Source: an uncultured Anaerolineales bacterium (GTDB taxonomy: Bacteria; Chloroflexota; Anaerolineae; B4-G1; SLSP01). From it: a stretch of DNA of 64,000 nt. Made by a program: the position numbers and the translations under genes. Positions 3,578 through 56,768 of the stretch are shown here, one piece after another. The notes under the pieces are model-generated. The model made no database searches and was not told where the DNA came from. It worked only from the letters and a program-made list of their open reading frames with translations. The stretch lies in the NCBI GenBank assembly GCA_964437445.1, contig CAYTGR010000019.1, forward strand, positions 5,502 through 69,501. The letters are read 5' to 3'. Within the stretch, counting starts at the first letter, position 1. Each line of letters starts with the position of its first letter.

Positions 3578-3954
3578 AAATCGTCGTGACTCCTTCCCAC
3601 TCGTCTATGGTGTCTTCTCAATCTTATTGGGGGGCAGGTTGTCATGAGGCGCTTTAGCGCCGTTTTCAGCGCGCTCAAGTGCGCTACGACAAACCCTTGC
3701 CCCGCTTTTTGAGCAGATGCTCTCTATGTGAGCTACGACTGGCCAGTGCCGGTCAAGTACTTCATGCGATTGGCCCTTCGTCGTTCGCCTCAATCTTACC
3801 ACAACTCTGCCGGTTCGTGGTAGTGACTTTGGTCGCCCTGGCTTATGGTTGCTCTTCTGTCAGAATGTGCTAATCTACGCCCAATGGCTGGCTACTGGCG
3901 CGCCCCCTCGGCGGGCGACAGGCATAAAATCCGGGGAGCACAGGTTGATGCTTT

Positions 3955-9987: not shown

Positions 9988-10092
9988 GGGTCGCTTCCTC
10001 CTTGTGAAAATAACGCGCTGAGTTTTGAGTTTGTAGTAAGGCGCTTGAGCGCCGGCTCACGTGCTGAAGCGCGTCACTACGAGCCAGAAGAC

Positions 10093-27194: not shown

Positions 27195-27444
27195 AGCTTC
27201 CTTGACTGTGCCACAATGGGGCAAAGAGTTAGGAGTAAAGAGTAGGAATAATGAAGGGTGTGGCATGTCAAAATCTTGGCCGGTCGTTGATGCGTTGATT
27301 ATTGTTGGGGGAATCCAACATGAACCGGCATCCATCAGCGGTGGGATGAAAACAGGCTTGTAGTCAAGCGCTTCAGCGCGGCTCAGACGGCGCTAAAGCG
27401 CCTCACTACAAACTCAGCGCGTTATTTTCGGAGGAGGATCAGGT

Positions 27445-31707: not shown

Positions 31708-33728
31708 GCTTTTTTCAGTGCGGCCCGCAGCCAGAGGGCGCTGAGCAACAAACCGGTTACCAGCGTGCCGCCAAAAATGAGGATAAACCGCCGCGCCTGG
31801 GCAGGAGGCAAGCCCACCATCAGGACATAGCTAGGCCACCAATCGCCCAGGCGCGGTGTGGCGGCGTCCAGAAACCACATCAAGGCGGCCTGACTCCAGG
31901 GGTAACGCCAGGTCAGGGGCAAGGGACGAATCGTGCGCCGCGGCACCGGCACGCCGTCGCTCAAAATCTCCAGCCGGCTGATGAAAACGCTCAGCGCCCG
32001 TGGATCACCCTGTTCCAGCGGCTGCCAGGTTGGAGCTGACCATTGCAAGAAGCCAGGGAAAGAAAGCGCTGTGGCCGACAGGCTTACCGTTTCCACCCAT
32101 TGCGTCTCGCGGTCATCGGCTACCAGCAGGTGACGGTCGGCGGTCAGGGGCTGCCCATTATAGACCCAGGTCAGGCCCGTCCAGGGGGTGAGGGCATCGG
32201 CCGGTCGCGGCCGCGAATAGGTCAGGTGCACGGTGACCTCCTGCCGGGGCCTGGCGTAGAGCCACACCTGCCCCTCGGCGGACATCCAGCGGCCCCACGG
32301 CGCCAGGGCGGGCACTTCCGGTTCATAGAACCCCCCCTCCACCCAATAAAACGCTGGTGAGCGGTGCGCAGCATCCTGCCAATACGCTCGCCAGGTCTGA
32401 GTCGCAGCGGGCCAGAGTCGCCATTGTCCCAACAGCACCGAGTCATGAGGACGGTAGAGCTGGTTTTCCAACGGGGTTGGTCCCAGCACAAAGGTGTAAT
32501 AGTTAACCAGCAGCGAGGAAAGCTGAACCCAAAAGCCTATCACGAAGAGGCTGCCAACGACGAGCGATCGCCAGCGCCGGGGCAGGTCCTGTCGCTCCAG
32601 AAAAGCACCCACCGGCAGGAGCAAGAACGGCGTCACGCAGACCAGATAGCGCGGTCCCCAGGCGATCCCCCCCACCCAGACCGGCAAAGCTTCGTTGGGA
32701 TTGGTGATCACACCGTAAAAGAGCGGATAGAGGACCACCAGCGTTAGACTCAGCAACGTCGCCAGCCGTTGCCGCCGCCACCAGGCTCCCCATCCCCACC
32801 AGCTCAACCAGGTCAACGGGGAGAAGAAGAAGAAGCCCTTGCCAGAGCTAAGGAAGAAGCCATATAGACTTTCCACCAGACTGGGGGCGCCCCACCATTC
32901 GTTGACTGAGCCGCGCATCTCAGGCGCAGTATAGCCGGTCTCCAGCCAATCATGAAACCGGAAGTAGTTGAACCCGGCGAGCGCCAGGCCGATGAGCAGC
33001 AAAGGGAGTCCGCCGGCCCAGACGGTGCGCCCCAACCAGCGCCCCGGCGTCGGTTGCCGGCGCCAGAGCAGCAGCAAGTAGAGCGCGAGGGCCGGCGCTG
33101 CCATCACCATCACATACTTGGTCGCGATTCCCAGGCCCAAAGAGGCGGCGCTCACAGCCATCCAGCCGGGCCGGCCGGTTTGCCCATAGCGATAGGCACT
33201 CCAGGCCATCAGCACCAGCCAGAAAGTATGCGCCATTTCGGTGAAGAAAAAGCGGGCATAGGGCGAGATCAGCGTGGTGAGAGCCAGTGCCACCGTTAAA
33301 AAGAGCGCCGTGCGCCGCCGGTAACCCAAATCCAGACTGAAGAGGTAGAACAGGGCCACCGTGGCCGCCCCCAGCAAGCTATTGAGCAGCGTGACAAAAA
33401 AGCGGGTGAAATAAGGTTTAAAGAGAACGGGGAAACCGTGCGCTACCCATGTTCCCAGGGAGTACAGCGGCACGGCCAGCAGGGAATGGAGCGGCGCCGT
33501 AATCGCGTAGAGCCGACCATCATAACCGGAGGTTACCGAGCGGTGAATATCGCCGGCCAGTTCTGGCCCCAACTGGGCAAAGGTTCCCCGCTCCACCAGC
33601 GCTTCGGTGACATGATAGACCGTCTCCCCATCCAGGCTGTCAATGTAACCGTTGCCGGTGAAAGCGTACCAGCAAGCGAACAGGCAGAAAAGCGCTAAAG
33701 CGACTGGTAAATCCCTGCGTGATAACAT
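31692..33728 (-). CDS. GT-C glycosyltransferase, ArnT / PMT_2 (GT39/GT83-like) family
   Basis: Polytopic N-terminal region with DSLDGETVYHVTEALVERGTF (the DE..Y motif of PMT_2/ArnT), followed by a ~300-aa C-terminal extracytoplasmic domain. Confidence 0.65.
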   Translation of the reverse strand: MLSRRDLPVALALFCLFACWYAFTGNGYIDSLDGETVYHVTEALVERGTFAQLGPELAGDIHRSVTSGYDGRLYAITAPLHSLLAVPLYSLGTWVAHGFPVLFKPYFTRFFVTLLNSLLGAATVALFYLFSLDLGYRRRTALFLTVALALTTLISPYARFFFTEMAHTFWLVLMAWSAYRYGQTGRPGWMAVSAASLGLGIATKYVMVMAAPALALYLLLLWRRQPTPGRWLGRTVWAGGLPLLLIGLALAGFNYFRFHDWLETGYTAPEMRGSVNEWWGAPSLVESLYGFFLSSGKGFFFFSPLTWLSWWGWGAWWRRQRLATLLSLTLVVLYPLFYGVITNPNEALPVWVGGIAWGPRYLVCVTPFLLLPVGAFLERQDLPRRWRSLVVGSLFVIGFWVQLSSLLVNYYTFVLGPTPLENQLYRPHDSVLLGQWRLWPAATQTWRAYWQDAAHRSPAFYWVEGGFYEPEVPALAPWGRWMSAEGQVWLYARPRQEVTVHLTYSRPRPADALTPWTGLTWVYNGQPLTADRHLLVADDRETQWVETVSLSATALSFPGFLQWSAPTWQPLEQGDPRALSVFISRLEILSDGVPVPRRTIRPLPLTWRYPWSQAALMWFLDAATPRLGDWWPSYVLMVGLPPAQARRFILIFGGTLVTGLLLSALWLRAALKKAYSSG

Positions 33729-45081: not shown

Positions 45082-45216
45082 GCCCAACTGCTGGCGCTTC
45101 AGCTGCACCGCGCAGCGCAGCGGAGCGGCGTCAGGTGGAACTCCCCCTGGCTGGCTGCACCAGCCTCCCCCGGATGAACGGGCCGTTGGCCCGTTCTTAG
45201 CAAATGCTTGTTAGCC
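45082..45216. repeat. Copy A of a ~135-bp repeated structured intergenic element (copy B at 49083..49219), immediately 5' of a minus-strand start codon
   Basis: The two copies align at roughly 80% identity with an identical 48-bp core (GCGCAGCGCAGCGGAGCGGCGTCAGGTGGAACTCCCCCTGGC). Hairpins are preserved by compensatory differences. Confidence 0.6.
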
Positions 45217-46028: not shown

Positions 46029-49000
46029 CTACGGCTGCCAGTTCCTGAGCACGAGGGGTATGTAGACATACCAGCGTGGTTTTTCGGATACTTTGATCAC
46101 AAACTCCTGCTCAGCGAATGTCCCCGTCCTATCTGTAGCGCGCAGCGTAACCGTACAAGTACCCGTATTGGCCGGTGTGCCGGCCAGCGTCGCCGTGCCG
46201 TTGCCGTGATCGGTCAGCGTCAGCCAGGCTGGGAGCGTGGAGGCGGTGATGGTCAGCGCGTCGCCGTGGATGAGGTCGGGGTCACCGGCGACGACAGCAT
46301 AGGCGTAGGGCGTGCCTTGCGTGGCGGTGAGCACCGGCGTGCTGGCAAAGTACGGCGCGTCGTTGACGTTGGCGACGGTGATGGTGAACGCCTGCGTGTC
46401 GGTCAGCCCGCCGCTGTCGGCCACCCGTAGCACCACCGGATGCTGGCCCACGTTGGCGTTGGAGGGCGTGCCGGAGAGGGTTGCCGTTCCGCCGCCGTGA
46501 GCGGTGAACGTGAGCCAGGCGGGCAATGTCGGTGCTGTGATGGTCAGAATATCGCCATAGATCAAGTCGGAGTCGGTGATGATGGCGGTATAAGTGTAGA
46601 TCATACCCTGCGTCGCAGTTGTGACCGGTGGGCTGGTGAAGCCCGGCGCATGGTTGGGACCCTTCTCATACGCCCCCATATCCACTATGGCGCTCCCGTT
46701 GCCGTCGCCATCCACAATGCGGGGGTTGCCGTCCAGGTCCGTGGTGACAGATACCGGCACGGCGCTGTTGATTCCGGCGTCAATCGCCGGGGAGGTCAGT
46801 TGCAGGCGCAGGTTGCCGCCGGCCGGGTTCACAAAACGCGGGTCGGCGTCAATGTTGCCGCCGCCATTGGTGCCGCAGGCAGAGTTCCAACTGCCCGAGC
46901 CGCCGCAGCCCTGGATGTCGCTGTAGGAGATGACCGGGATCCAGGTGTCGTCGTCATTGTAGATTTCGGACCCGCTGGAGGCCGAGTTGCCCCACAGAAT
47001 AACGTTCCTCAACTGCGGGACGCTGTAAGTATAGTTGGCTATCCCCCCGCCATTGTAGGTGGCCGTGTTGTCATTGAAAGTGACGTTTGACAGCGTCGGT
47101 CTGCTATTCGCCGCATTGCACATCCCACCGGCGATCAGGCCGGCTGCATTGCCCCTGAATATGACGTTTGACAACGTTGGGTTGCTGTAGAAACGGGTGT
47201 ACATCCCGCCCCCGCTCTGATAGGCCGTGTTACTGTCAAAGATGACGTTCGTAAGCGTTGGGTTGCATTCAACATTGTTGTACATTCCCCCGCCGGATTC
47301 AGCCTCGTTGCCGCTAAAGATAACGTTCCTCAGCGTGGGGCTGCTGCCCGACTGACCGAACATCCCGCCGCCATCGTAGGTGGCCGTGTTGCCATTGAAG
47401 GTCACGTCCGTCAGCGTGGGGCTGCTCGACTCGTTTTCCATTCCGCCACCCTTTAAGCCCGCCGTGTTGCCATTGAACCTCACGTCTGATAGCGTCGGGC
47501 TACTCACGTTGTTGCACATTCCACCGCCATCATAGTCGGCTCTGTTTCCATCAAAGGTGACATCCGTCAGCGACGGGCTGCTGGAGTTGTTATTGTACAT
47601 CCCACCGCCAGAACCTGCGGAGTTCTCGTTGAAGGTGACGGCTGTCAGTGTCGGACTGCTGGCAGTGTTGTATATCCCACCGCCATAGCTGGAGGCTATG
47701 TTGCCCTCAAAGGTGACGTCCGTCAGCGTCGGATTACTGGAATCATTGCACACCCCGCCACCCCCCTTGTGAGAACCAGTCGCCGAGTTGCCAGAGAAGG
47801 TGACATGGATCAGCGTCGGGTTGCTCTCATAGTTGGACATTCCACCGCCGTTGCTGTAATTACCATCGCCGGTAGCCGAGTTGTCCGAGAAGGTGACGTT
47901 CGTTAGTGTCGGGTTGCTGGCATAGTTGAACATTCCGCCACCGTAGAATGCCGTGTTGTCACTGAAAGTGACCTCCGTCAGTGTTGAACTGCTGTCAAAC
48001 CCGTTGTACATCCCGCCGCCGGTGTTGCCTGCTGTATTGCCGCTGAAGGTGATATTCATCAGCGGTGAGGCACTATGGTAATTGTACAACCCCCCGCCAT
48101 CGTTGGCAACGATATTCCCGTCAAAAGTGATGTCCGTCAGCGAGGGGCTGCTCTCATAATTGTACATCCCGCCGCCATCGGCTGCCTGGTTATAGCTGAA
48201 GATGACACTCGTCAGTGTCGGGCCGCTGCTGTTGTTGAACGCCCCGCCGCCAGAATTGCTGGCAGAGTTCCCGCTAAAGGTGACGTTTGCCAGCATTGGG
48301 CTGCTCTCATAGTTGTATACCCCGCCGCCGCGGGTAAAGGCCACGTTGCCCTCGAAGGTGACATCCGTCAGCGTGGGGCTGCTCCACTGATTGAGCATCC
48401 CGCCGCCGTACGCAGCCGCGTTGCCACTGAAGATGAGCGCCGTCAGCGTCGGGCTGCTCTCGTCGTTGAACATCCCGCCGCCGAGGTAATGTGGCCAGTT
48501 CTCCTCGGCCTCGACAGCATCGGCCAGCCCGGCGGTGATGAAAAAGCCATCCAGCACGGCGGTCTCGGTTACACCGTTGCTCATGACAACATGGTAGGCG
48601 TTCGTGCCGGTGATGTTGGCTGTGGTGGTCACCACGCCATGGGGATCGGTAGAGTCATTGCCGTCAATGTCACCGCTGAGGACCGTGGGGTGGGCCCGCC
48701 AGTCCCGCTGGGTGCGCAATGTCTCGGTGGCGACAAAGCCGCCATAGATGGCGACGCCGTTCCTCAGCGTAAAGGTGGCCTCCCGGTCGTTCGGATCGGT
48801 GGTGGGTTTGTGTACTCCCGCCTGGACCCAAATCTCGTCGCCGCTTTGGGCATTGTGCAGCGCAGTTTGCAGCGTACATGCGGTAGACCAGGAATCCCCG
48901 CAGGGCCACGCTGTGCTGCCATTCGGCCTGGCGCGAATCACGCTGGAGGTGGCGCGAGCAATGTCAGGGCCTGTGAACGTTGTGACCAGTAATGATACCC

Positions 49001-49046
49001 CCAGCAGAAGGGCTACTACTGTAAAGAAATGCATTATCTTTGCCAT
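46029..49046 (-). CDS. Large secreted right-handed parallel beta-helix repeat protein with two C-terminal Ig/cadherin-like repeats
   Basis: Signal peptide MAKIMHFFTVVALLLGVSLLV with AAGGAGG 5 nt upstream of the ATG at 49046. More than 20 tandem ~23-aa repeats of the form SSPTLT(D/N)VTF.GN.A..GGGMYN. Two ~95-aa repeats follow (TITAPTLPAWLTFTAHGGGTATLSGTP / TITASTLPAWLTLTDHGNGTATLAGTP). Confidence 0.7.
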   Translation of the reverse strand: MAKIMHFFTVVALLLGVSLLVTTFTGPDIARATSSVIRARPNGSTAWPCGDSWSTACTLQTALHNAQSGDEIWVQAGVHKPTTDPNDREATFTLRNGVAIYGGFVATETLRTQRDWRAHPTVLSGDIDGNDSTDPHGVVTTTANITGTNAYHVVMSNGVTETAVLDGFFITAGLADAVEAEENWPHYLGGGMFNDESSPTLTALIFSGNAAAYGGGMLNQWSSPTLTDVTFEGNVAFTRGGGVYNYESSPMLANVTFSGNSASNSGGGAFNNSSGPTLTSVIFSYNQAADGGGMYNYESSPSLTDITFDGNIVANDGGGLYNYHSASPLMNITFSGNTAGNTGGGMYNGFDSSSTLTEVTFSDNTAFYGGGMFNYASNPTLTNVTFSDNSATGDGNYSNGGGMSNYESNPTLIHVTFSGNSATGSHKGGGGVCNDSSNPTLTDVTFEGNIASSYGGGIYNTASSPTLTAVTFNENSAGSGGGMYNNNSSSPSLTDVTFDGNRADYDGGGMCNNVSSPTLSDVRFNGNTAGLKGGGMENESSSPTLTDVTFNGNTATYDGGGMFGQSGSSPTLRNVIFSGNEAESGGGMYNNVECNPTLTNVIFDSNTAYQSGGGMYTRFYSNPTLSNVIFRGNAAGLIAGGMCNAANSRPTLSNVTFNDNTATYNGGGIANYTYSVPQLRNVILWGNSASSGSEIYNDDDTWIPVISYSDIQGCGGSGSWNSACGTNGGGNIDADPRFVNPAGGNLRLQLTSPAIDAGINSAVPVSVTTDLDGNPRIVDGDGNGSAIVDMGAYEKGPNHAPGFTSPPVTTATQGMIYTYTAIITDSDLIYGDILTITAPTLPAWLTFTAHGGGTATLSGTPSNANVGQHPVVLRVADSGGLTDTQAFTITVANVNDAPYFASTPVLTATQGTPYAYAVVAGDPDLIHGDALTITASTLPAWLTLTDHGNGTATLAGTPANTGTCTVTLRATDRTGTFAEQEFVIKVSEKPRWYVYIPLVLRNWQP

Positions 49047-49082
49047 TTTACCCTCCTTGTGGATAAGACGATAGAGCCAGCT

Positions 49083-49219
49083 GCCCAACGGCCTGTGCTT
49101 CACCTGCGCCGCGCAGCGCAGCGGAGCGGCGTCAGGTGGAACTCCCCCTGGCCGGCGAGGCCAGCCTTCCAACCGGAGGAACGTGCAGGGCTACGTTCTT
49201 AGCGAACGCTTGTTATCTG
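49083..49219. repeat. Copy B of the ~135-bp repeated structured element (see 45082..45216); overlaps the last 6 codons of the res-like gene and ends 33 bp upstream of the beta-helix gene start
   Basis: Direct alignment with copy A. Confidence 0.6.
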
Positions 49220-52200
49220 CCCGAACAGGATCCTCATGGAATCGTAATCCGCCCCACGTTCAAGGAAAAGAATGTGTTTTTCCGCAAACCTGACGCGATC
49301 CCACGTTCCATCATCATAGCGCTGATAGAGGTCATCATATGGTGTCGCGGAGATAATAAAGGCGTCCAGAAAAACATTGGTCCTTTCGCTTCGTTTTCCG
49401 ATTTCTCTTGCCAGTTCCGGTAGCCGCTCGTGCAGACGCGCTTTCTCATCATGGATGTAGGCTTTGGCGTGTATCATTCCATGGGGCTCAATGAACACAA
49501 TGCGCTGAGCGCCGCTATTCTGGTCAACGACCCATAGGATGAAGTCGGGATAGAAGCCGCGCTCCTCGAAGAAGCCTATTCCATAGCCGCGGCTTAAGTT
49601 ACGCAGCAGGAATACTTCCTTGCCCGCCAGCGACTTGTCTTTCTCGGCATTCCAATACTCGCGCAGGTCGCGCACGAAGCGCGCCTCGCTCTCCTTTAGC
49701 CCCGGCGGGACGATTTGCGCTTTTTCCGGCATGTCCACCAGGAGCGGCTGGTAGAGGTGGCGGTCGAAATGAATGCGCGGCAGACCGGCGTTCTCTTGTT
49801 CACAAAGGCGCTGTTGCTCCTTGAGCAAGGCTTGTACGGCCTCCACCAAATGCTCTTCTGAACGCGGGACTCGGACTACGTAGCCTGCTTTTTCTTCGCT
49901 CACCCCCTGCGGCCTGAAGTCCAGGTTGGGATCGCTGGCATCCAGCGGCCGATAGACCATGGTTTGCTCATCCCATTGTTCGCGGCGCGTCTGATAGAAG
50001 CGGTCCAGATACCGGCAAAGGAGTTGCGTCACCGCCTGCTGGAGCAGGACGCGGTCGGCAAAGGATTGCGGCGCGAACACACGCTCATCGGCGATCAGTG
50101 TGCAGAGGGGAATATCCCTGTCATTTTTCAGGCCGATGATCTGGCGCGGTGTTTCCGGTTGAATGACCAGGTTGGTCAGCCCTTTGTGCGTCTTATACGC
50201 CAGCAAGTCGAGATAGGCCTGCTGCCAATCCACCCAGGCCAGGCTTTCGGGGGGCAGAGGGCGCGCCCGGCCGCTGCGCACCTCGACGGCGTGCAGGCCC
50301 AGCCTGGTGCTTTCCATGGCCTGCACCCTGACCGAGAGATCCACCTGCACGGAGATGGAAGCGTCCGGTTCGAGGAGCAGGCTGGCCTCGCGGGCGAAAT
50401 CGCGGCCCTCCGGCGGGCGCGGCACGACCAGCCCGCGTTGGAGAAATTGCTCGTTGGCCCAGACGAACAGCGGCAGTTCGATGGCCGGTTCGACCTCCAC
50501 GCCTTCGCGTTCCAGGTAGTCGCGGAATTGCGCCATGTAGTTGGCGCGCACGGCGAAAATGTTGAGCGTCTCCAGCAGACGGATGTGTTTGGGATGCGTC
50601 CCATCCAGCGCCGCACTGCGTTTGAGGCTCATCCCCTTGCCCTTGAGGCGCACGCCGCGCCCGAGAAGTTGGATGATCTGCGAGCCTTCCTGCCGCCCGA
50701 TGTTCAAGAGGCCCATGCTGGCCACGCGCCAGGAGTTCCAGCCTTCCATGAATTTCTTGGCGCCGATGAGCACATGGATTCCGGAGTCGGGGCGGTTGAT
50801 GCGCTCGAAGAGCGAAGCGGCAATGGCGTCGTCCTCCAGGGTGATGCCGCCGGCATCCTCCTCCACCAGTTTCTTGAAGGCGGAGGTGTCGCCGATGAAA
50901 ATCAGGCCAAAATAGTCCTCGGCGCCCGCCGCCTTGAGGCCCAGTTCGCCGGGACTGCTCTTGATGTCGGCGAGATGCAGACCGCCGCCCGCCGGAGCGT
51001 GGAAGAGGCGCGCCAGGATGGCGGCATAGAGCTGCGCCGGAGTGAGATTCTCTTCTTTCAAGAAGGGGAAACGTCCGGCGAAAATATCCGCGCCGTCGGC
51101 GGAGACCAGCCCGGTTTTCCCGTCCAGGATGGCCTTGAGCGTTTTGACTGCCCAGGCGCGGTCGCTCAGCACGCGGTGCAGGAAGCGCGCCACGGTCAGC
51201 ACGTCGCTGCGCGGCTTTTTGTTCTCGGTGTAAACGGCATTGACCGTGCTGCCGACGAACACCCAGAGCGGCTTCTCCAGGTTGTAGGGACGCAGGGCGT
51301 CATCCTGTTCTTCATAGAGCCGGATTTGCTCGTAAAACGAAAGCAGGTTGCCCAGGAGCAGGGTCTCCCCCTCACCCCAGCCCTCTCCCCTCTGGGGAGA
51401 GGGGGGCGCGTCGCGCAGGTTCAGGATGCGGAAGTCCTTGCCGAAGCCGTCGCCGTAGAAGTAGCGGTAGGAATAGTCGAAGACGATGGCCTTGCCGTAT
51501 TCGGCTGTCAGCGGGTCGTTGCGCGCCGCCGAAAGCGCCTGCCCGAAGGTGGCGCTGTACTCGAAGGTGAAGCCGGTCGCGCCCAGGGCGTCGCGGTAGC
51601 CGCGCCAGGCCTCGCCGCCGGAGCCTTTGTGACCTTCGTCCACGAAGATGAGATTGCGCCCTTCGAAGGTATCCACCGGCACGCTCATGCCGCCGCCGCG
51701 CTTTTCTTCCACCAGTTTGGTGATTTCGATGACCTGCACGGCGTCCCGCCCGCCCGTCCACAGGCCGCTCGTGTTCAGGTCGAAGCGCCGCGCCGGAATG
51801 CCCGAGGCGGCGAGTTCCTCAAGGTGCTGCTCGCTCAGGCCCTCGTTGGGCGTGATGAGCAGGATGTTGTCCAGCGGGGGACGAGTCGCCGAATCGCCCG
51901 TACCGTAGTGCAGAAACTGGTAGTAGTTCAGGTGCAGGAGCAGGGTCTTGCCGCTGCCGGTGGCCATCCAGAAGGCCAGTTTGGTCAAATCGCCCTCGGT
52001 GAAGGGTTCGTCCTGCGGTTCGCCGGGCAGACGACGGGCGTTGCGCCCGGCGACAAAGGCATTCAGGTCGGCTAACAGTTGCGCTTTGGCGTTGAACAGG
52101 CAGTCGAGGACGATTTCGGTGTAGAGCGCCGCCAGGTACTGGAAGTAGCGCAGGGTGATTTTTTCCGTGCGCCCGCGGTTGATTTGCTCCAGGTGCCGGC

Positions 52201-52453
52201 GGATGTTCTGGTCGTAGCGTTCCAGGTCGGCGGCGGGAATCTTGACCTGACTGCCGCGGGCAATGAGATGGTGGTAGAGAAAACTATGCCCGTCCGCGCC
52301 AAAGCCTTCGGCCACGCTCTTGCAGTCTTCCAGGAGGGCGCGGTTGCTCGCATAGCCCAGGAGATGGTTGAGCCAGGCCAGCAGGACAAGGCGGTTTTCG
52401 AGTGTGACGTATTGCTGGAGGCCGTTCGGCATATCACGCCTCCACCCCGGCAA
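49199..52453 (-). CDS. Type III restriction enzyme Res-like subunit: SF2 helicase/ATPase plus C-terminal nuclease-like domain, with ~185-aa N-terminal extension
   Basis: Helicase motif I FWMATGSGKT, motif II FVDEGHKG, motif III SATFG, motif VI QLLGRGVRLKG. C-terminal region carries YPDFILWVVD...IVFIEPHGMIHAK (possible degenerate PD-(D/E)xK). Overlaps the mod stop by 20 bp. Confidence 0.7.
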   Translation of the reverse strand: MPGWRRDMPNGLQQYVTLENRLVLLAWLNHLLGYASNRALLEDCKSVAEGFGADGHSFLYHHLIARGSQVKIPAADLERYDQNIRRHLEQINRGRTEKITLRYFQYLAALYTEIVLDCLFNAKAQLLADLNAFVAGRNARRLPGEPQDEPFTEGDLTKLAFWMATGSGKTLLLHLNYYQFLHYGTGDSATRPPLDNILLITPNEGLSEQHLEELAASGIPARRFDLNTSGLWTGGRDAVQVIEITKLVEEKRGGGMSVPVDTFEGRNLIFVDEGHKGSGGEAWRGYRDALGATGFTFEYSATFGQALSAARNDPLTAEYGKAIVFDYSYRYFYGDGFGKDFRILNLRDAPPSPQRGEGWGEGETLLLGNLLSFYEQIRLYEEQDDALRPYNLEKPLWVFVGSTVNAVYTENKKPRSDVLTVARFLHRVLSDRAWAVKTLKAILDGKTGLVSADGADIFAGRFPFLKEENLTPAQLYAAILARLFHAPAGGGLHLADIKSSPGELGLKAAGAEDYFGLIFIGDTSAFKKLVEEDAGGITLEDDAIAASLFERINRPDSGIHVLIGAKKFMEGWNSWRVASMGLLNIGRQEGSQIIQLLGRGVRLKGKGMSLKRSAALDGTHPKHIRLLETLNIFAVRANYMAQFRDYLEREGVEVEPAIELPLFVWANEQFLQRGLVVPRPPEGRDFAREASLLLEPDASISVQVDLSVRVQAMESTRLGLHAVEVRSGRARPLPPESLAWVDWQQAYLDLLAYKTHKGLTNLVIQPETPRQIIGLKNDRDIPLCTLIADERVFAPQSFADRVLLQQAVTQLLCRYLDRFYQTRREQWDEQTMVYRPLDASDPNLDFRPQGVSEEKAGYVVRVPRSEEHLVEAVQALLKEQQRLCEQENAGLPRIHFDRHLYQPLLVDMPEKAQIVPPGLKESEARFVRDLREYWNAEKDKSLAGKEVFLLRNLSRGYGIGFFEERGFYPDFILWVVDQNSGAQRIVFIEPHGMIHAKAYIHDEKARLHERLPELAREIGKRSERTNVFLDAFIISATPYDDLYQRYDDGTWDRVRFAEKHILFLERGADYDSMRILFGQITSVR
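51366..51407. repeat. GC-rich palindromic ~39-bp element inserted in-frame within res (CCCTCTCCCC-TCT-GGGGAGAGGG core); encodes PSPQRGEGWGEGE
   Basis: Read directly. Related copies at 52669..52707 and 54707..54747 inside mod. Confidence 0.6.
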
Positions 52454-55400
52454 ACATGCGTTCCTTGAAAAGCGGATCCAGCGACTGCGCGCCGGGGATG
52501 AGCGAATCGCCGTTCACAAAGACCTCATCCGCGCCATCGGTCAGTTTCTGTTTGGCAACAAAGTCGCGGTCGCGCTCGTAGTCTTCTTTCGTCCAGCCCT
52601 GCGTCTCGCGCCAGATAACGGCCACGGCGCGCCCGTTTCGCAGAAGGCCGCGATAGACCAGGTAGCGGCCCTCACCCCCGGCCCCTCTCCCAGCGGGAGA
52701 GGGGAGGACGCGGCGCGTCTGCACGTCCAGCCCCAGCAGGTAGTTGAAGGTTTCGGGCAAATCCACCAGGCGCTCGCGGGTTTCGCCGTCGCGGTGGAAG
52801 CGCAGTTTGTAGGCGAAGGGCGTCTGGAGTTTCTCCACGTCCAGCAGGGTTGCGCTGTGGCGGGTCTCCCACTTGAGCATGTAGTGGAGCAGGTAGTCGT
52901 CTCGGAAGAGTTCCAGCACCTTCTGGCCGCCTGCGTCATCAAAGGTCAGGTTGTTGAGCGCGTCCTCGAAGGATTCCAGGCGGATGATTTTGACAATACG
53001 CGGGCTTCGTTCGGCTTCTTCGGCTGTCGCCATGCGCTTGGGCTTGCCGTCCTTCCACTCCGGCGTGAAGGTGACTTTTTTGATGCGCGGCAGGAGTACG
53101 GTGTCGAAGTAGTGCGCCATTTCAACAAGGATGAACTTGCGCCGCCCGCCATCTTCGCGGTTGAGGTTGATGACCGCGTGGCCGGTGGTGCCGGAGCCGG
53201 CGAAGAAGTCGAGAACTTGCTCTTCACTATTGAGATTGCACACCCGAAGACAGTCGTTGACTGTGTAAATTGATTTTGGAAAGGAGAACAAGGTTGTACT
53301 TCCTAAAATATGTCCAAGCAGGTTAGTACCATAATCGGTTGCTGAATACTTGCTGTCAAGCCAAAGTGTTGGCGGCAAGGTTCCATGTCGCATGCGAGAT
53401 TTCATGTAGACTCCCAGCCTGCCAGTTCTGTCTGGCTTTGCAACCAGCTCTGATAAATTTTTCATTGCTGTTTCATGTCCCCACTTCCATGTCTTCTCAT
53501 CTCCTTTTTCATCCACCGGCCAGACAACCGTTTCTTCTGCTGATGGCTCTTGAAGAATAGTCCAGCTACGTCTTGACTCATCCCATTCTATCTGTGGAAT
53601 ACGGAGGGAACCATCTGTGCGCGCATATATCGGATAGAAAAGCTTCGGTCGTGCGAATCTATTTGCGTTGAACCCCCCGTGTTTGCGAAAATTTACCCAT
53701 TCAAATCGTCCTTTTGCATCAGATTCGTTATATCTCGCGATTTGACGCTCGGTTTTCGCAAGTTCGCCAATTGTGACTTCCTTGGAATAACCGACAAAGA
53801 GTGCATAGTCGTGAGAGACTGAGAGCCCCGTTATGGCAGACCTGCCTGCAGGGTTACTGCGAACTACTACTGTACCCAGAATTGACTCGGTGCCAAAAAG
53901 TGTCTGTAGGGCCATGTGTAGCCGACTATACTCAGAATCGTCAATGGCAATGCACCATTGTCCGTAAGCTTCCAGAACAAATGTCGAGAGAAATATACGG
54001 TCTATAAGCAAGGTAAGCCAAGAAGAATGCTTGTAATCGTTTTTGTACAAGATTTCTGATGCAGCCGTGTTATACGGCGGGTCAATGTAAATGCACTTCA
54101 CCCGCTGGCGGTACTTTTCCTGCAACAGGTTGAGCGCCTGCCAGTTTTCGGAGTGCACCAAGAGACCGTCGGTGAGTTCGTCAAGATTGTCAAACGAAGC
54201 CAGCAGGCGGTCGGTGAAGTCTTGGGGGAAATGGCGCGTGTCGAGCGGCAGGGTGGGATGGGCCTGGAGAAAATCCACGCGCTGCTGCGCGCCTTTCGGC
54301 GACTCAACGGCCAGGAGCGCCCGCCACTCCTCCCACTGCGCCTCACAGGCGGCGATCTCCGGGTAGAACGCTTCGGGGATGTTGCCGACGGTGATGACGT
54401 AGAAGGTCTCGGTAACAAACTTCTTCTTCTCCCAGAGCATCTTCTGGAAGTCTTCGATTTGCGCCAGAAAGTCAATGATAACGCTGCCAATGCGCTTGAC
54501 CAGGCGCATGAGCTGGAACCAACCCTCGGCTAATTGCTCGCCGGCGGCTTCCATCTCTTCAAGGTTGAGCGCTTCGTTCTTCAGGTAAAAGTCGAGTTCG
54601 CGGGCAAGAAAGCCGCGCAGGTCCTTGTGGATGAAAAAGTCGCTGGTGTTGCGGCGGGTGTACTGGCGCAGGTGGTATTCCAGCAGGGAAACCGCCGCGC
54701 CATTTTCTTCCCCTCTCCCTTTGGGGGAGGGGGCAGGGGTGGGGGTGCGCCGTTCGGCGGTCAGCGCGGCTATGGCTTCGGGGGCTTTGATGCGCTTGGG
54801 AATGTCGGCGACAGCTTTGGCAAGGATGGCTTCCTGCTGGTTCTTTTGACCGTAGGCGATGGTCTCCTGCGCGGTCAGCGGGCGGAACTGGAAGGGGATG
54901 GTCAATGTGCGCGACGCTTCATCCCAGGCGAGGCCGTCCAGCACGGGCAGGAAGAAGCGCTTCTCGCCCTTGATATTGCCCTGCTCCACGTCGGCCTGCC
55001 GGAGTTCGAAGCGCACGGTCACGCCGTTGGGGGCTTTGTAGGTGTAGTCGGTGAAATACTCGCCGGTCTTGACGTAGTACTGGTCGTGGTTGGCCCAGTA
55101 GAGCGTCACCTCCTCGCCGTTGTAGGGGATGGCGTAGCGTTCCTTCTTCGAGTAGCGGCGCCTGGAGATAAAGTCGCCATCCTGCCAGTAGCGGGAGAAG
55201 AAGGCGTAGAGGTGGTTGTAGATGGCGGCTTCCAGGGTCTCAGTAGAACGAGCGCCCCGGGCTTTGGCCTGCGCTTCCAGGTATTCCTTTCCCGCTCTGG
55301 TAGCGCGGTAGGTTTCGGCCAGGTTGCCGTCGGCGTCTAAGGCGTCTTCGCCCAGCGCGTCCAACACCTTCTGGCGGGCGGCCTGCAGGGCTTCCTGCGC

Positions 55401-55595
55401 CTGTCCCTGCTCGGCCAGCGCGCCGCGCCGCAATTCCTCGGAGATGGCGCGGGGCAGGTCTTCGGTAATCCACTTCTCGATCGCCTGCCGCTTGTAATTC
55501 ATGATGCGGTAGATGCCGAAGTCCAGGTCGGCGCAATCAAATTGGAAAAGGTCGCGCAAGAGGGATTGGAATTGTTCAAGAGGTCTTGTCGTCAT
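52434..55595 (-). CDS. Type III-like DNA N6-adenine (or N4-cytosine) methyltransferase Mod, beta-class (motif IV before motif I), with ~500-aa N-terminal extension of unknown function
   Basis: Motif IV IYIDPPYNT at ~residue 520 and motif I DFFAGSGTTGHAV at ~residue 790, with an AT-rich TRD between them. N-terminal 1-500 has no recognised domain (starts MTTRPLEQFQSLLRDLFQFDCADLDFGIYRIMNYKRQ). 1053 aa. Confidence 0.8.
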   Translation of the reverse strand: MTTRPLEQFQSLLRDLFQFDCADLDFGIYRIMNYKRQAIEKWITEDLPRAISEELRRGALAEQGQAQEALQAARQKVLDALGEDALDADGNLAETYRATRAGKEYLEAQAKARGARSTETLEAAIYNHLYAFFSRYWQDGDFISRRRYSKKERYAIPYNGEEVTLYWANHDQYYVKTGEYFTDYTYKAPNGVTVRFELRQADVEQGNIKGEKRFFLPVLDGLAWDEASRTLTIPFQFRPLTAQETIAYGQKNQQEAILAKAVADIPKRIKAPEAIAALTAERRTPTPAPSPKGRGEENGAAVSLLEYHLRQYTRRNTSDFFIHKDLRGFLARELDFYLKNEALNLEEMEAAGEQLAEGWFQLMRLVKRIGSVIIDFLAQIEDFQKMLWEKKKFVTETFYVITVGNIPEAFYPEIAACEAQWEEWRALLAVESPKGAQQRVDFLQAHPTLPLDTRHFPQDFTDRLLASFDNLDELTDGLLVHSENWQALNLLQEKYRQRVKCIYIDPPYNTAASEILYKNDYKHSSWLTLLIDRIFLSTFVLEAYGQWCIAIDDSEYSRLHMALQTLFGTESILGTVVVRSNPAGRSAITGLSVSHDYALFVGYSKEVTIGELAKTERQIARYNESDAKGRFEWVNFRKHGGFNANRFARPKLFYPIYARTDGSLRIPQIEWDESRRSWTILQEPSAEETVVWPVDEKGDEKTWKWGHETAMKNLSELVAKPDRTGRLGVYMKSRMRHGTLPPTLWLDSKYSATDYGTNLLGHILGSTTLFSFPKSIYTVNDCLRVCNLNSEEQVLDFFAGSGTTGHAVINLNREDGGRRKFILVEMAHYFDTVLLPRIKKVTFTPEWKDGKPKRMATAEEAERSPRIVKIIRLESFEDALNNLTFDDAGGQKVLELFRDDYLLHYMLKWETRHSATLLDVEKLQTPFAYKLRFHRDGETRERLVDLPETFNYLLGLDVQTRRVLPSPAGRGAGGEGRYLVYRGLLRNGRAVAVIWRETQGWTKEDYERDRDFVAKQKLTDGADEVFVNGDSLIPGAQSLDPLFKERMFAGVEA
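52669..52707. repeat. GC-rich palindromic element copy 2 (CCCCTCTCCC-AGC-GGGAGAGGGG) in-frame within mod; encodes PSPAGRGAGGEGR
   Basis: Read directly; same orientation and flanks (CCCTCACCCC) as the copy in res. Confidence 0.6.
54707..54747. repeat. GC-rich palindromic element copy 3 (inverted orientation) in-frame within mod; encodes PSPKGRGEENG
   Basis: CCCCTCTCCC-TTTG-GGGGAGGGGGCAGGGGTGGGGG aligns with the reverse complement of copy 1. Confidence 0.55.
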
Positions 55596-55774
55596 CTATA
55601 TCCTCGTTGAAGAAGAACAAACGTCGGGTAATCATGCACCAGAATTCCCGGAATGGACAGACCTCCATCCCGGGTAAACACCAGTTCTTGCTGATAGGCA
55701 TAGAGCGGGTCAATCCCGATCACTTTTTCGGCCCTTCGGGGTAGAGCGTGTCCTGTGCCCGGTCCGTTCCACAT
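55592..55774 (-). CDS. Small hypothetical protein (~60 aa) translationally coupled to mod
   Basis: Its stop TGA overlaps the mod ATG (ATGA). Sequence MWNGPGTGHALPRRAEKVIGIDPLYAYQQELVFTRDGGLSIPGILVHDYPTFVLLQRGYR. No clear RBS, and the track ORF extends to 55909, overlapping the upstream gene. Confidence 0.3.
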   Translation of the reverse strand: MWNGPGTGHALPRRAEKVIGIDPLYAYQQELVFTRDGGLSIPGILVHDYPTFVLLQRGYR

Positions 55775-55799
55775 AGCATACTTGAAGAAACAACCGTTG

Positions 55800-56768
55800 T
55801 CAACCCAACGTCCTTCTGCGTGCCCCAGCCCTTCTGAACCATCCCCGTTTTTTCGATTTTGGCCCGCTCTGCAACAGTTCTGCCAGGGTGATTTCGCCCG
55901 TCCGGACACGGTGGATCTCCTGCAAGGTGTAGCCCTCCATCAGCAGCTCACGCACATCGTAACCGATCTCCGCGCTGACCGTACCGATGTTGCCGACCGC
56001 CTGGCCGCCCTGCGGCTCTGCGCGCCTGGATGGATCCTCCAGCACAGCCTCGGCGGGCGTCCCTGCAATGGCTTCGCGCAGAAGCGCCTGGAAGACCGGG
56101 AAATTGGCAATGCGGCTATGCATGACCAGTTTCCATGGCGTGCGCTGGCCTTTCTTGTGGATGAGCAGGTCGCCGGTCTGCGTGAAGCGCATCTTCTCCA
56201 CCTCCGCCCAGGTCAGCGTCTCGCCCGCAGAAACCAACCCGCTCCCGTTGACGCCAATCTGTTTTCCAAAGGGAACCGTCGCGCCCGACTTGAGCGCTGA
56301 TTGCGCCGCCGGGAGCAGTAAATTACCCGTTTCTTTCAGCACTACGTGTCCAAGGTTGAAAATCTTTTCATAAGCCATATTCAGTTTAATGCGCCGCCCA
56401 TCCCGGGTGTGGACGGTGTATACCCACTGGATGGGACGCCACCCCAGCCTGATCCGGCGCATATCGTAGCCAATAAACTCATACATTTCGGCCACTTCGT
56501 CCCAGCGGAAAGAGAACCGGCGTCCCAGCCAATCCATGCCGACCACTCCTTTATCGTAAACTTCCACCCTGGCGCGCATCTGGGCGCGGTAACCCCACAA
56601 CAATCCTGCGGCGATGAGCAGCATGGCGATGCCCCCGACCGGGATGGGGGCCATCAGAATCAGGCCAACAATGATGAAAACTGGCATTACATAGAGAATC
56701 ACCCGCGCGTTCGCCTTGTTTGGTCCGAAAGTGGCGCGTAAAGAACCTAACTCGATGTCTGGCAACAT
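55800..56768 (-). CDS. Membrane protein with two N-terminal TM helices and tandem bacterial PH (bPH_2/YdbT-like) domains
   Basis: VMPVFIIVGLILMAPIPVGGIAMLLIAAGLLWGY (2 TM), then two PH-like blocks (RFSFRWDEVAEMYEFIG... and GETLTWAEVEKMRFTQTGDLLIHKKG). Family assignment is from pattern memory. Confidence 0.45.
   Translation of the reverse strand: MLPDIELGSLRATFGPNKANARVILYVMPVFIIVGLILMAPIPVGGIAMLLIAAGLLWGYRAQMRARVEVYDKGVVGMDWLGRRFSFRWDEVAEMYEFIGYDMRRIRLGWRPIQWVYTVHTRDGRRIKLNMAYEKIFNLGHVVLKETGNLLLPAAQSALKSGATVPFGKQIGVNGSGLVSAGETLTWAEVEKMRFTQTGDLLIHKKGQRTPWKLVMHSRIANFPVFQALLREAIAGTPAEAVLEDPSRRAEPQGGQAVGNIGTVSAEIGYDVRELLMEGYTLQEIHRVRTGEITLAELLQSGPKSKKRGWFRRAGARRRTLG

Follow-up and report, generated by a model that had tools for sequence, protein, structure and literature searches.

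In-frame BoxC/TM elements in the type III restriction-modification genes of an uncultured Anaerolineales bacterium, and their association with a DUF559 nuclease gene

Introduction

The G/C-rich triplex motif TM_ECO, earlier named BoxC or PIT (potential intrastrand triplex) element, is a dispersed repeat of which Holder et al. (NAR 2015, PMC4666352) reported 3610 copies over 262 proteobacterial genomes. Twenty-three of these copies are found in E. coli MG1655, where they are "always located intergenically", and Salmonella is reported to have no TM_ECO (PMC4666352). The arms of the element are conserved, its loops are variable, and part of the copies are arranged in inverted pairs (PMC4666352). 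In vitro, single-stranded TM_ECO folds into a purine-motif triplex, but none could be detected in vivo; the copies have been tied to local sequence instability (PMC4666352). Earlier studies of BoxC/PIT elements came from the Bergler and Maher groups (as cited in PMC4666352), and earlier work revealed neither promoter nor terminator activity of these elements (quoted in PMC4666352). Here, we describe three elements of this family, hereafter TMs, in a 64,000-nucleotide stretch of DNA from an uncultured Anaerolineales bacterium (Chloroflexota; contig CAYTGR010000019.1). This stretch, called the window below, carries the elements in-frame inside the res and mod genes of a type III restriction-modification (R-M) system.

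Palindromic repeats inside coding sequences have been described in Rickettsia. The Rickettsia palindromic elements (RPEs) are ~150 bp long and confined to this genus (Ogata et al. 2000, as summarised in PMC10969869). As far as RPEs are portrayed in that summary, they and TMs have in common that small palindromic repeats are found in-frame in unrelated coding genes, translated (presumably so for TMs), at places where the protein fold tolerates them. They differ in that TMs are ~35 nt long, GC-rich and present in many phyla, and in that a TM insertion replaces a few target codons. An earlier note on the window, made from its sequence alone, had pointed to a miniature palindromic repeat concentrated in res and mod, and had proposed MITE-like insertions (MITE, miniature inverted-repeat transposable element), recombination hotspots or regulatory hairpins as explanations.

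Results

The three window elements are members of the BoxC/PIT/TM family

The elements and their host genes are located as follows.

51369..51403, minus strand: TM/BoxC copy 1, in Res, about residues 349-363
52669..52703, minus strand: TM/BoxC copy 2, in Mod close to the C-terminus, residues 964-976
54711..54745, plus strand: TM/BoxC copy 3, in Mod, residues 284-300
49199..52432, minus strand: Res, type III restriction subunit, 1077 amino acids from its ATG (Pfam ResIII, PADLOC)
52434..55595, minus strand: Mod, type III modification methyltransferase, 1053 amino acids (Pfam N6_N4_Mtase, PADLOC)

Each copy consists of a 9-10-nt C-rich arm (CCCTCTCCC), a loop of 3-5 nt and a complementary G-rich arm (GGGAGAGGG), with a third block (GGGGTGAGGG, complement CCCTCACCCC) 2-3 nt away. 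On the sense strand, copy 1 reads CCCTCTCCC-CAGAG-GGGAGAGGG-CTG-GGGTGAGGG and its translation is PSPQRGEGWGEG (Res residues ~349-363), the encoded peptide being otherwise given as APPSPQRGEGWGEGE. Copy 2, in the register with a 10-nt arm, reads CCCTCTCCC-GCT-GGGAGAGGGG-CCG-GGGGTGAGGG and its translation is LPSPAGRGAGGEG. Copy 3 lies in the opposite orientation to copies 1 and 2, so that the sense strand of its host gene begins with the C-tail; it is degenerate, with A>G changes in both G blocks, and its translation is TPTPAPSPKGRGEE.

A full-text search for the arm sequences led to the study of Holder et al., in which the family pattern is 5'-CCCTCNCCC N3-6 GGGNGAGGG N3 GGGNGAGGG-3', with one mismatched triplet allowed (PMC4666352). 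Copy 1 is a strict match to this pattern, copy 2 fits it in a shifted register with 10-nt arms, and copy 3 departs from it by one mismatch (A>G) in each G block. Taking one genome per species and the version with 10-nt arms, the exact three-block motif was found in at least 120 stretches with unrelated flanks. From the scan matches listed, 144 TM copies were aligned, and again showed conserved arms, variable loops and unrelated flanks; the matches listed come from Chloroflexota, Alpha-, Beta- and Gammaproteobacteria, Cyanobacteria, Acidobacteriota, Planctomycetota, Gemmatimonadota, Verrucomicrobiota and candidate phyla. The window elements are thus members of a published and extremely widespread family, and not of a private one. 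They share with BoxC/TM_ECO the same three blocks, the conserved arms, the varying loops and spacer, the dispersed copies with unrelated flanks and the inverted pairs. In contrast to the E. coli K-12 copies, described as always intergenic and without an associated mobile element or protein, all three window copies lie inside open reading frames (ORFs), in-frame and presumably translated; intergenic location describes the E. coli copies and is not a sequence criterion of the family. The family moreover extends to Chloroflexota and many non-proteobacterial phyla, and relatives of the window element bracket a DUF559 gene (see below). Part of the motif has also been met in another context: the putative G-quadruplex sequences KP-PGQ-3 and KP-PGQ-5 of K. 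pneumoniae (GGGAGAGGGCCGGGGTGAGGG and similar) correspond to the G-arm and G-tail of a TM, but were studied as isolated oligonucleotides forming G-quadruplexes (G4), not as a three-block repeat or a coding insertion (PMC11170735).

The window has a G+C content of ~60%, and Pro/Gly-rich linkers are common in proteins, so that the matches could be thought of as ordinary GC-rich low-complexity sequence, or the peptides as ancestral conserved segments. Controls argue strongly against this view. In dinucleotide-preserving shuffles, 0.00 matches to the exact hairpin pattern were expected against 2 in the window, and with up to 3 mismatches all three copies were recovered against 0.05 expected. A three-block search allowing at most 1 mismatch per block returned exactly 3 sites in the window and 0 in 100 shuffles, so that the search found no further TM copy in the 64 kb. 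A lone CCCTCACCCC at 32185 was rejected as an element, being an isolated decamer. Since the same DNA motif is also common to unrelated loci across phyla, and since most homologues lack the segments (see below), we regard the probability of an ancestral or merely compositional origin as close to nil. These searches uphold the three palindromic copies at the places given in the earlier note and their absence from the rest of the window, and a repeat-pair comparison agrees with the inversion of copy 3.

The predicted hairpin has a 10-bp stem with a 3-nt loop. The stems are genuine, but their stability compared with shuffled controls is modest (z from -0.4 to -2.3), because the sequence is strongly C/G-skewed. 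An Rfam scan of positions 49000-56000 (E up to 10) gave three chance-level matches only, none of them on the elements. The TM consensus contains a stop codon in one of its six frames, and the other five code for peptides rich in Pro, Ser, Gly, Arg and Glu. As expected from the earlier reading of the locus, ORF translations run through all copies with Pro/Gly-rich peptides. The element lengths had also been described as multiples of three; this does not hold for the third interval (54707-54747, 41 nt), but it does for the net change in length relative to uninserted homologues (see below).

The identification of the host genes as res and mod was confirmed by PADLOC (REase_III 2e-160 for Res, which hosts copy 1; MTase_III 2e-173 for Mod, which hosts copies 2 and 3). 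The order is that of a type III system, with a Mod carrying an N6/N4 methyltransferase (MTase) domain (PF01555) followed by a Res helicase-nuclease (PF04851). A search with Res and Mod in NCBIfam gave no match. The mechanical ORF of Res reaches 52453; a gene call is available in L205, and identical proteins exist for both Res (P0001) and Mod (P0121). In the window, res begins one base past the mod stop codon; in a close relative (L001:9359-10001), mod and res are separated by a nucleotidyltransferase/HepT-like toxin-antitoxin pair.

The TM peptides are lineage-specific insertions in protein loops

Res and Mod were each aligned with their 120 best homologues. Three sites are occupied by TM-type peptides in the window.

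Res, about residue 351: uninserted form NLRD-ET(D/R)A(E/D)(K/Q)T-(D/E)xLLLGN; TM-type carriers, 7 sequences (window and 6 homologues)
Mod, about residue 285: uninserted form ERR-KTEKGE-SVS; TM-type carriers including the window, 3 sequences
Mod, about residue 965: uninserted form VY-DDGGR-RYLVY; TM-type carriers including the window, 29 sequences

About 113 of the 120 Res homologues, and likewise most Mod homologues, have no TM peptide and carry uninserted forms instead (RDETDAEKTDVLLL in Res; ERRKTEKGESVS and VYDDGGRRYLVY in Mod). The TMs in res and mod are therefore lineage-specific in-frame insertions and not ancestral sequence. At Mod-965, 12 more sequences were scored "other" by loop length, most of them with peptides of other repeat families; at least one in this class, P0199 (LPSPLTPTLSPEGRG), looks TM-derived. 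Across organisms, this beta-hairpin loop accommodates at least four unrelated repeat families: TM, a GNAGVSPA-type, a GGTPAIPGE-type and MMNDESHHSSFITHHS (Roseiflexus castenholzii).

At the DNA level, the net change in length relative to an uninserted homologue is +21, +21 and +33 nt, with 5-8 target codons replaced at each of the three sites and no target-site duplication seen in the alignment at any of them. The proposal of MITE-like insertion is thus borne out in part: the elements are miniature, in-frame and lineage-specific, but they do not behave as a classical MITE, which would leave a clean insertion and a target-site duplication. All three uninserted sites of one homologue (L002) contain ACCGA followed by C or A, which may be a target preference or a coincidence; as a post hoc observation in a single homologue, this target motif was set aside and left unexplained.

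The same loops have been used repeatedly and independently. The Mod-965 loop of L001 (GCA_018606645.1), the closest relative that bears TMs, carries a TM of another form and in another frame (VY[PSPLPSPPWGEGEGEG]RYL, against V[LPSPAGRGAGGEG]RYL in the window), and therefore derives from an independent event in the same loop. On neighbour-joining (NJ) trees the carriers are scattered: by Fitch counts, 7 changes are needed for the 7 Res carriers, 3 for the 3 Mod-285 carriers and 24 for the 41 Mod-965 carriers. The positions used are few, with only four or five across the Mod family (~226, 285, 431 and 965) and one in Res.

An AlphaFold2 model of Mod (mean predicted local distance difference test (pLDDT) 73, predicted template modelling score (pTM) 0.40) places both Mod peptides in loops between beta-strands. 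Residues 284-300 (copy 3) form a predicted loop between strands 281-283 and 301-303, with pLDDT <50 at 286-298, and residues 964-976 (copy 2) one between strands 957-965 and 977-984, with low local confidence.

R-M genes are not a specific target

The concentration of copies in R-M genes that the earlier note had stressed is real within the window, where all three fall in 10% of the sequence (p about 0.001 under uniform placement). L001 shows a similar picture, with 7 TM hairpins in its 7.5-kb mod-res region and 0 in the other 15.7 kb. R-M genes are nonetheless not a special target, since TMs are also found in-frame in unrelated housekeeping genes: Pfam-confirmed hosts include aconitase, MnmE and HypF, as well as the Lhr helicase of an isolate, Metapseudomonas resinovorans MO-1, and a LysC-LysA fusion of Dokdonella ginsengisoli, and specific targeting of R-M genes was accordingly rejected. 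In an Anaerolineales metagenome-assembled genome (MAG), the aconitase gene (L115:3763-6759) has five tandem in-frame TMs near its N-terminus (PSPAGRGEGVRGS x5). Among the matches listed, 29 of 107 evaluable TMs lie within an ORF that continues for at least 80 codons in both directions, against 371 of 585 random positions, a proxy for intragenic location that takes in spurious ORFs of GC-rich DNA. TMs are therefore depleted in coding sequence, yet not excluded from it.

The clustering bears on the idea that TMs serve the R-M system itself, as pause sites, through mRNA stability or phase variation, as hotspots of domain shuffling or as useful Pro/Gly linkers. Three copies within 6.4 kb in the window and the seven of L001, with none in the flanking genes, would suit such a role, as would the link of TMs to local genomic instability in E. 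coli (PMC4666352). It is difficult to reconcile with the homologues, most of which do without the elements, with the decay of copy 3 in both G blocks and with the presence of the same element in unrelated housekeeping genes. The hairpins, as noted above, are only modestly more stable than shuffles, and earlier tests revealed no promoter or terminator activity (quoted in PMC4666352). We consider a function in R-M improbable. Nothing found here points to regulatory hairpins or pausing, and neither R-M expression nor domain shuffling is a supported role of the hairpins.

The rest of the window harbours another repeat family. Intergenic imperfect palindromes of ~60-70 nt with GTAG/CTAC heads (TTTGTAGTAAGGCGCTTGAGCGCC...GCGCGTCACTACGA) were found at 3636-3695, 10006-10075 and 27355-27429. 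They look REP/REPIN-like and seem to be the resident repeat of the host, TMs being confined to the R-M genes. Because the intergenic regions carry this different, GTAG-headed repeat, the distribution suggests that the window TMs stem from the operon's own history (horizontal transfer or local activity) and not from current genome-wide activity.

A DUF559 nuclease gene is bracketed by TMs

Some Mod homologues are 150-250 residues longer than the window Mod. Two of them, P0163 (from L001; ~80% identity with the window Mod where the two align) and P0137, owe their additional residues to a DUF559 domain (PF04480, Vsr-like nuclease), which lies in-frame in the linker preceding the methyltransferase domain and has a TM at either end. 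The corresponding window site is empty.

54282..54296, minus strand: empty inter-domain site of Mod, codons K434-Q438 "KGAQQ"; empty in the window and L002, filled in L001 (P0163) and P0137

In the window Mod and in L002 this site reads ESP-KGAQQ-RVDFL, and those few codons are replaced in the filled allele. The flanking of an inserted domain by TMs could be cited for the domain-shuffling role mentioned above. However, a location of the TMs at the border of Mod's variable target-recognition domain was rejected: those of L001 are placed ~50 residues beyond the MTase motifs, on either side of the DUF559 insert. Four further homologues (P0127, P0155, P0176 and P0225) have an in-frame RayT-like Y1 domain (PF01797) at the DUF559-cassette site (window Mod ~430-440). 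The repeats on its two sides belong to another family (peptides GNAGVSPA and GRDVRDP), and the whole would be a REP-RAYT unit read through within the methyltransferase.

The association extends beyond Mod. A DUF559 ORF is present in 6 of the 120 TM loci listed, in each case with a TM within ~60 nt, and two of the six are in-frame inside leucyl- and methionyl-tRNA synthetase (LeuRS and MetRS). In a reverse test, a DUF559 alignment served to search metagenomes, TMs playing no part in the query. In the 80 best loci, which are the closest relatives of the TM-adjacent DUF559 domains and speak for that subfamily only, a TM-type hairpin lies within 200 nt of the domain in 62, and on both sides in 35. 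The density of TM hairpins is 3.9 per kb near DUF559 and 0.25 per kb further off in the same loci. Orientation is nearly fixed: the upstream TM has its G-tail facing the gene in 29 of 35 cases, the downstream TM its C-tail in 43 of 44, and the latter begins a median of 1 nt past the domain. In fourteen of these 80 loci the frame stays open for more than 150 codons to one side of the domain or to both, the hosts identified including the Mod site (L125-L127), the MetRS linker (L168 and L188, as in L006), ThiC, HsdS and another methyltransferase. Taken together, the cassette is read through in LeuRS, MetRS (one linker, three loci), ThiC and type I HsdS; in-frame TM-DUF559-TM arrangements can be seen at L093:576-3689 (Panacagrimonas MAG), L006:1777-4515, L168, L188, L152:1-1917 and L196:844-2271.

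Pfam detected no intron or intein domain around the cassette, only host domains and DUF559/MTES_1575, so that it is not embedded in a recognisable self-splicing intron or intein. In PDB, the DUF559 profile finds 3HRL (3e-40) and, as a weak match, 3R3P, the homing endonuclease I-Bth0305I (9e-4). In E. coli K-12, the one annotated DUF559 gene examined, ycjD, ends in CCCTCTCCC, ~170 nt from TM no. 9 of Holder et al.; its end adjoins a decayed complementary arm that overlaps the stop codon (L124, NC_000913.3 1351204-1351760).

Two known types of mobile system invite comparison. As in REP/REPIN-RAYT systems, there are numerous copies of a short structured repeat, alone or in pairs, and a single-gene "master" between inverted copies; in other homologues, the cassette site of Mod is taken up by a RayT-like domain that has repeats of its own. 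The TM differs from REPs in having no GTAG head, and its partner is a PD-(D/E)xK Vsr-like nuclease (PF04480) and not an HUH Y1 transposase (PF01797); an action of DUF559 on the TM repeat is putative. Vsr-like (EDxHD) homing endonucleases, represented by I-Bth0305I, are distant sequence matches of the cassette nuclease (E = 9e-4). Here too, different organisms have a nuclease gene at one and the same place in a conserved gene (three times in MetRS, at least five times in Mod), alongside empty alleles: filled Mod genes are P0163, P0137 and L125-L127, filled MetRS genes L006, L168 and L188, and the window and L002 are empty. Unlike the genes of homing endonucleases, however, the cassette shows no intron or intein in Pfam and is read through, with TM-encoded Pro/Gly stretches on both sides.

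These data can be read in two directions. TMs could be pre-existing targets, with DUF559 and other mobile genes homing into or between TM pairs, as insertion sequence (IS) elements target REPs; the TMs themselves would then spread otherwise, by template switching, slippage at non-B DNA or some transposase. The F-spacer-R order around DUF559 is indeed that of the gene-less inverted TM pairs of E. coli, the RayT-like gene found at this Mod site has repeats of another family on its flanks, and most TMs are solitary, DUF559 being present in only the six of 120 listed loci. Yet the empty alleles of Mod, MetRS and other hosts have no TM at the cassette site, and the cassette therefore arrived with the TMs already around it; a single unit also fits the strict orientation and the gap of only ~1 nt between the domain end and the downstream TM. 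We thus regard pre-existing targets as unlikely, though less so than a function in R-M. The opposite direction, in which a mobile DUF559 (Vsr-like PD-(D/E)xK) cassette has TMs as its inverted ends, spreads them and leaves them behind singly or in pairs, seems to us an even chance.

The window also encodes a surface-type protein (46029-49172, minus strand, 1047 amino acids) with Chlam_PMP repeats, He_PIG and Big_9 domains and ~19 tandem coding repeats of 75-93 nt. A stretch of 88 nt at its 5' end (49083-49170) recurs 4 kb away (45082-45169) with 86% identity, which suggests a paralogue with the same leader.

Discussion

The window elements are BoxC/TM copies inserted in-frame in loops of Res and Mod, and are probably scars of selfish DNA and not functional parts of the R-M system. 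TM copies would have inserted into DNA coding for surface beta-hairpin loops of type III Mod and Res with the loss of a few target codons, and would be transcribed and translated within the host protein, adding 7-11 Pro/Ser/Gly/Arg/Glu-rich residues to the loop. Their persistence would be explained by the five of six frames that are stop-free and code for flexible hydrophilic peptides, and by selection sparing only insertions in tolerant loops of non-essential, horizontally mobile genes. By analogy, such scars are best read as comparable to RPEs: TMs insert, as RPEs do, in-frame into unrelated ORFs at tolerated positions, although with ~35 nt, a GC-rich sequence and a source other than Rickettsia they fall outside the RPE family itself (~100-150 bp, Rickettsia).

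If TMs are ends of the DUF559 cassette, the latter would spread by a break-and-repair (homing-like) route, a mode of spread that would account for the local clustering and for target sites that lose a few codons but are not duplicated. It would insert, without intron or intein, into loops and linkers of type III Mod, HsdS, MetRS, LeuRS and ThiC, its stop-free Pro/Gly-coding TM ends serving as built-in linkers with which the host protein still works. A resident copy of the cassette would be represented by E. coli YcjD, and the three TMs of the window would be single ends that date from such events in the past of the R-M operon.

Several points weigh against this interpretation, whether for the insertions or for the cassette. 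The DNA alignment gives no clean insertion boundary and no target-site duplication. The patchy spread of carriers could result, in part, from recombination between R-M alleles instead of independent insertions, and the NJ/Fitch analysis is crude. The Mod model is of moderate quality, as its mean pLDDT and pTM indicate, that the peptides are translated is an assumption based on their open frames, and the ORF-spanning measure of intragenic copies includes spurious frames. As for the cassette, its association with TMs was established in one DUF559 subfamily; in the window, no DUF559 ORF was found and the Mod cassette site is empty. The association, moreover, has no direction in itself, and the cassette could target pre-existing TMs instead.

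The element itself is already known, and so are in-frame palindromic repeats as a phenomenon. What appears to be new with respect to the searchable literature is the presence of BoxC/TM in coding sequence, across many phyla, and the fixed-orientation association with DUF559, including in-frame cassettes in essential genes that have neither intron nor intein. We found no literature linking DUF559 or YcjD to BoxC, in a search whose coverage leaves out most subscription journals.

BoxC/PIT/TM elements are present in thousands of copies across bacterial genomes and are tied to genome instability, and their origin and spread have gone unexplained since the 1990s. The locus described here shows that BoxC/TM is not restricted to intergenic DNA: it enters coding sequence in-frame and is tolerated in loops, in many phyla. 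For annotation, peptides resembling PSPxGRGxGGEG, and DUF559 "fusions" in aminoacyl-tRNA synthetases or methylases, are best taken as repeat or cassette insertions and not as native domains. The oriented DUF559 association offers a concrete candidate for the enzyme behind the TM family, and might give a role to a domain of unknown function that is very common and includes E. coli YcjD. If this is true, a nuclease gene could live inside essential genes without splicing.

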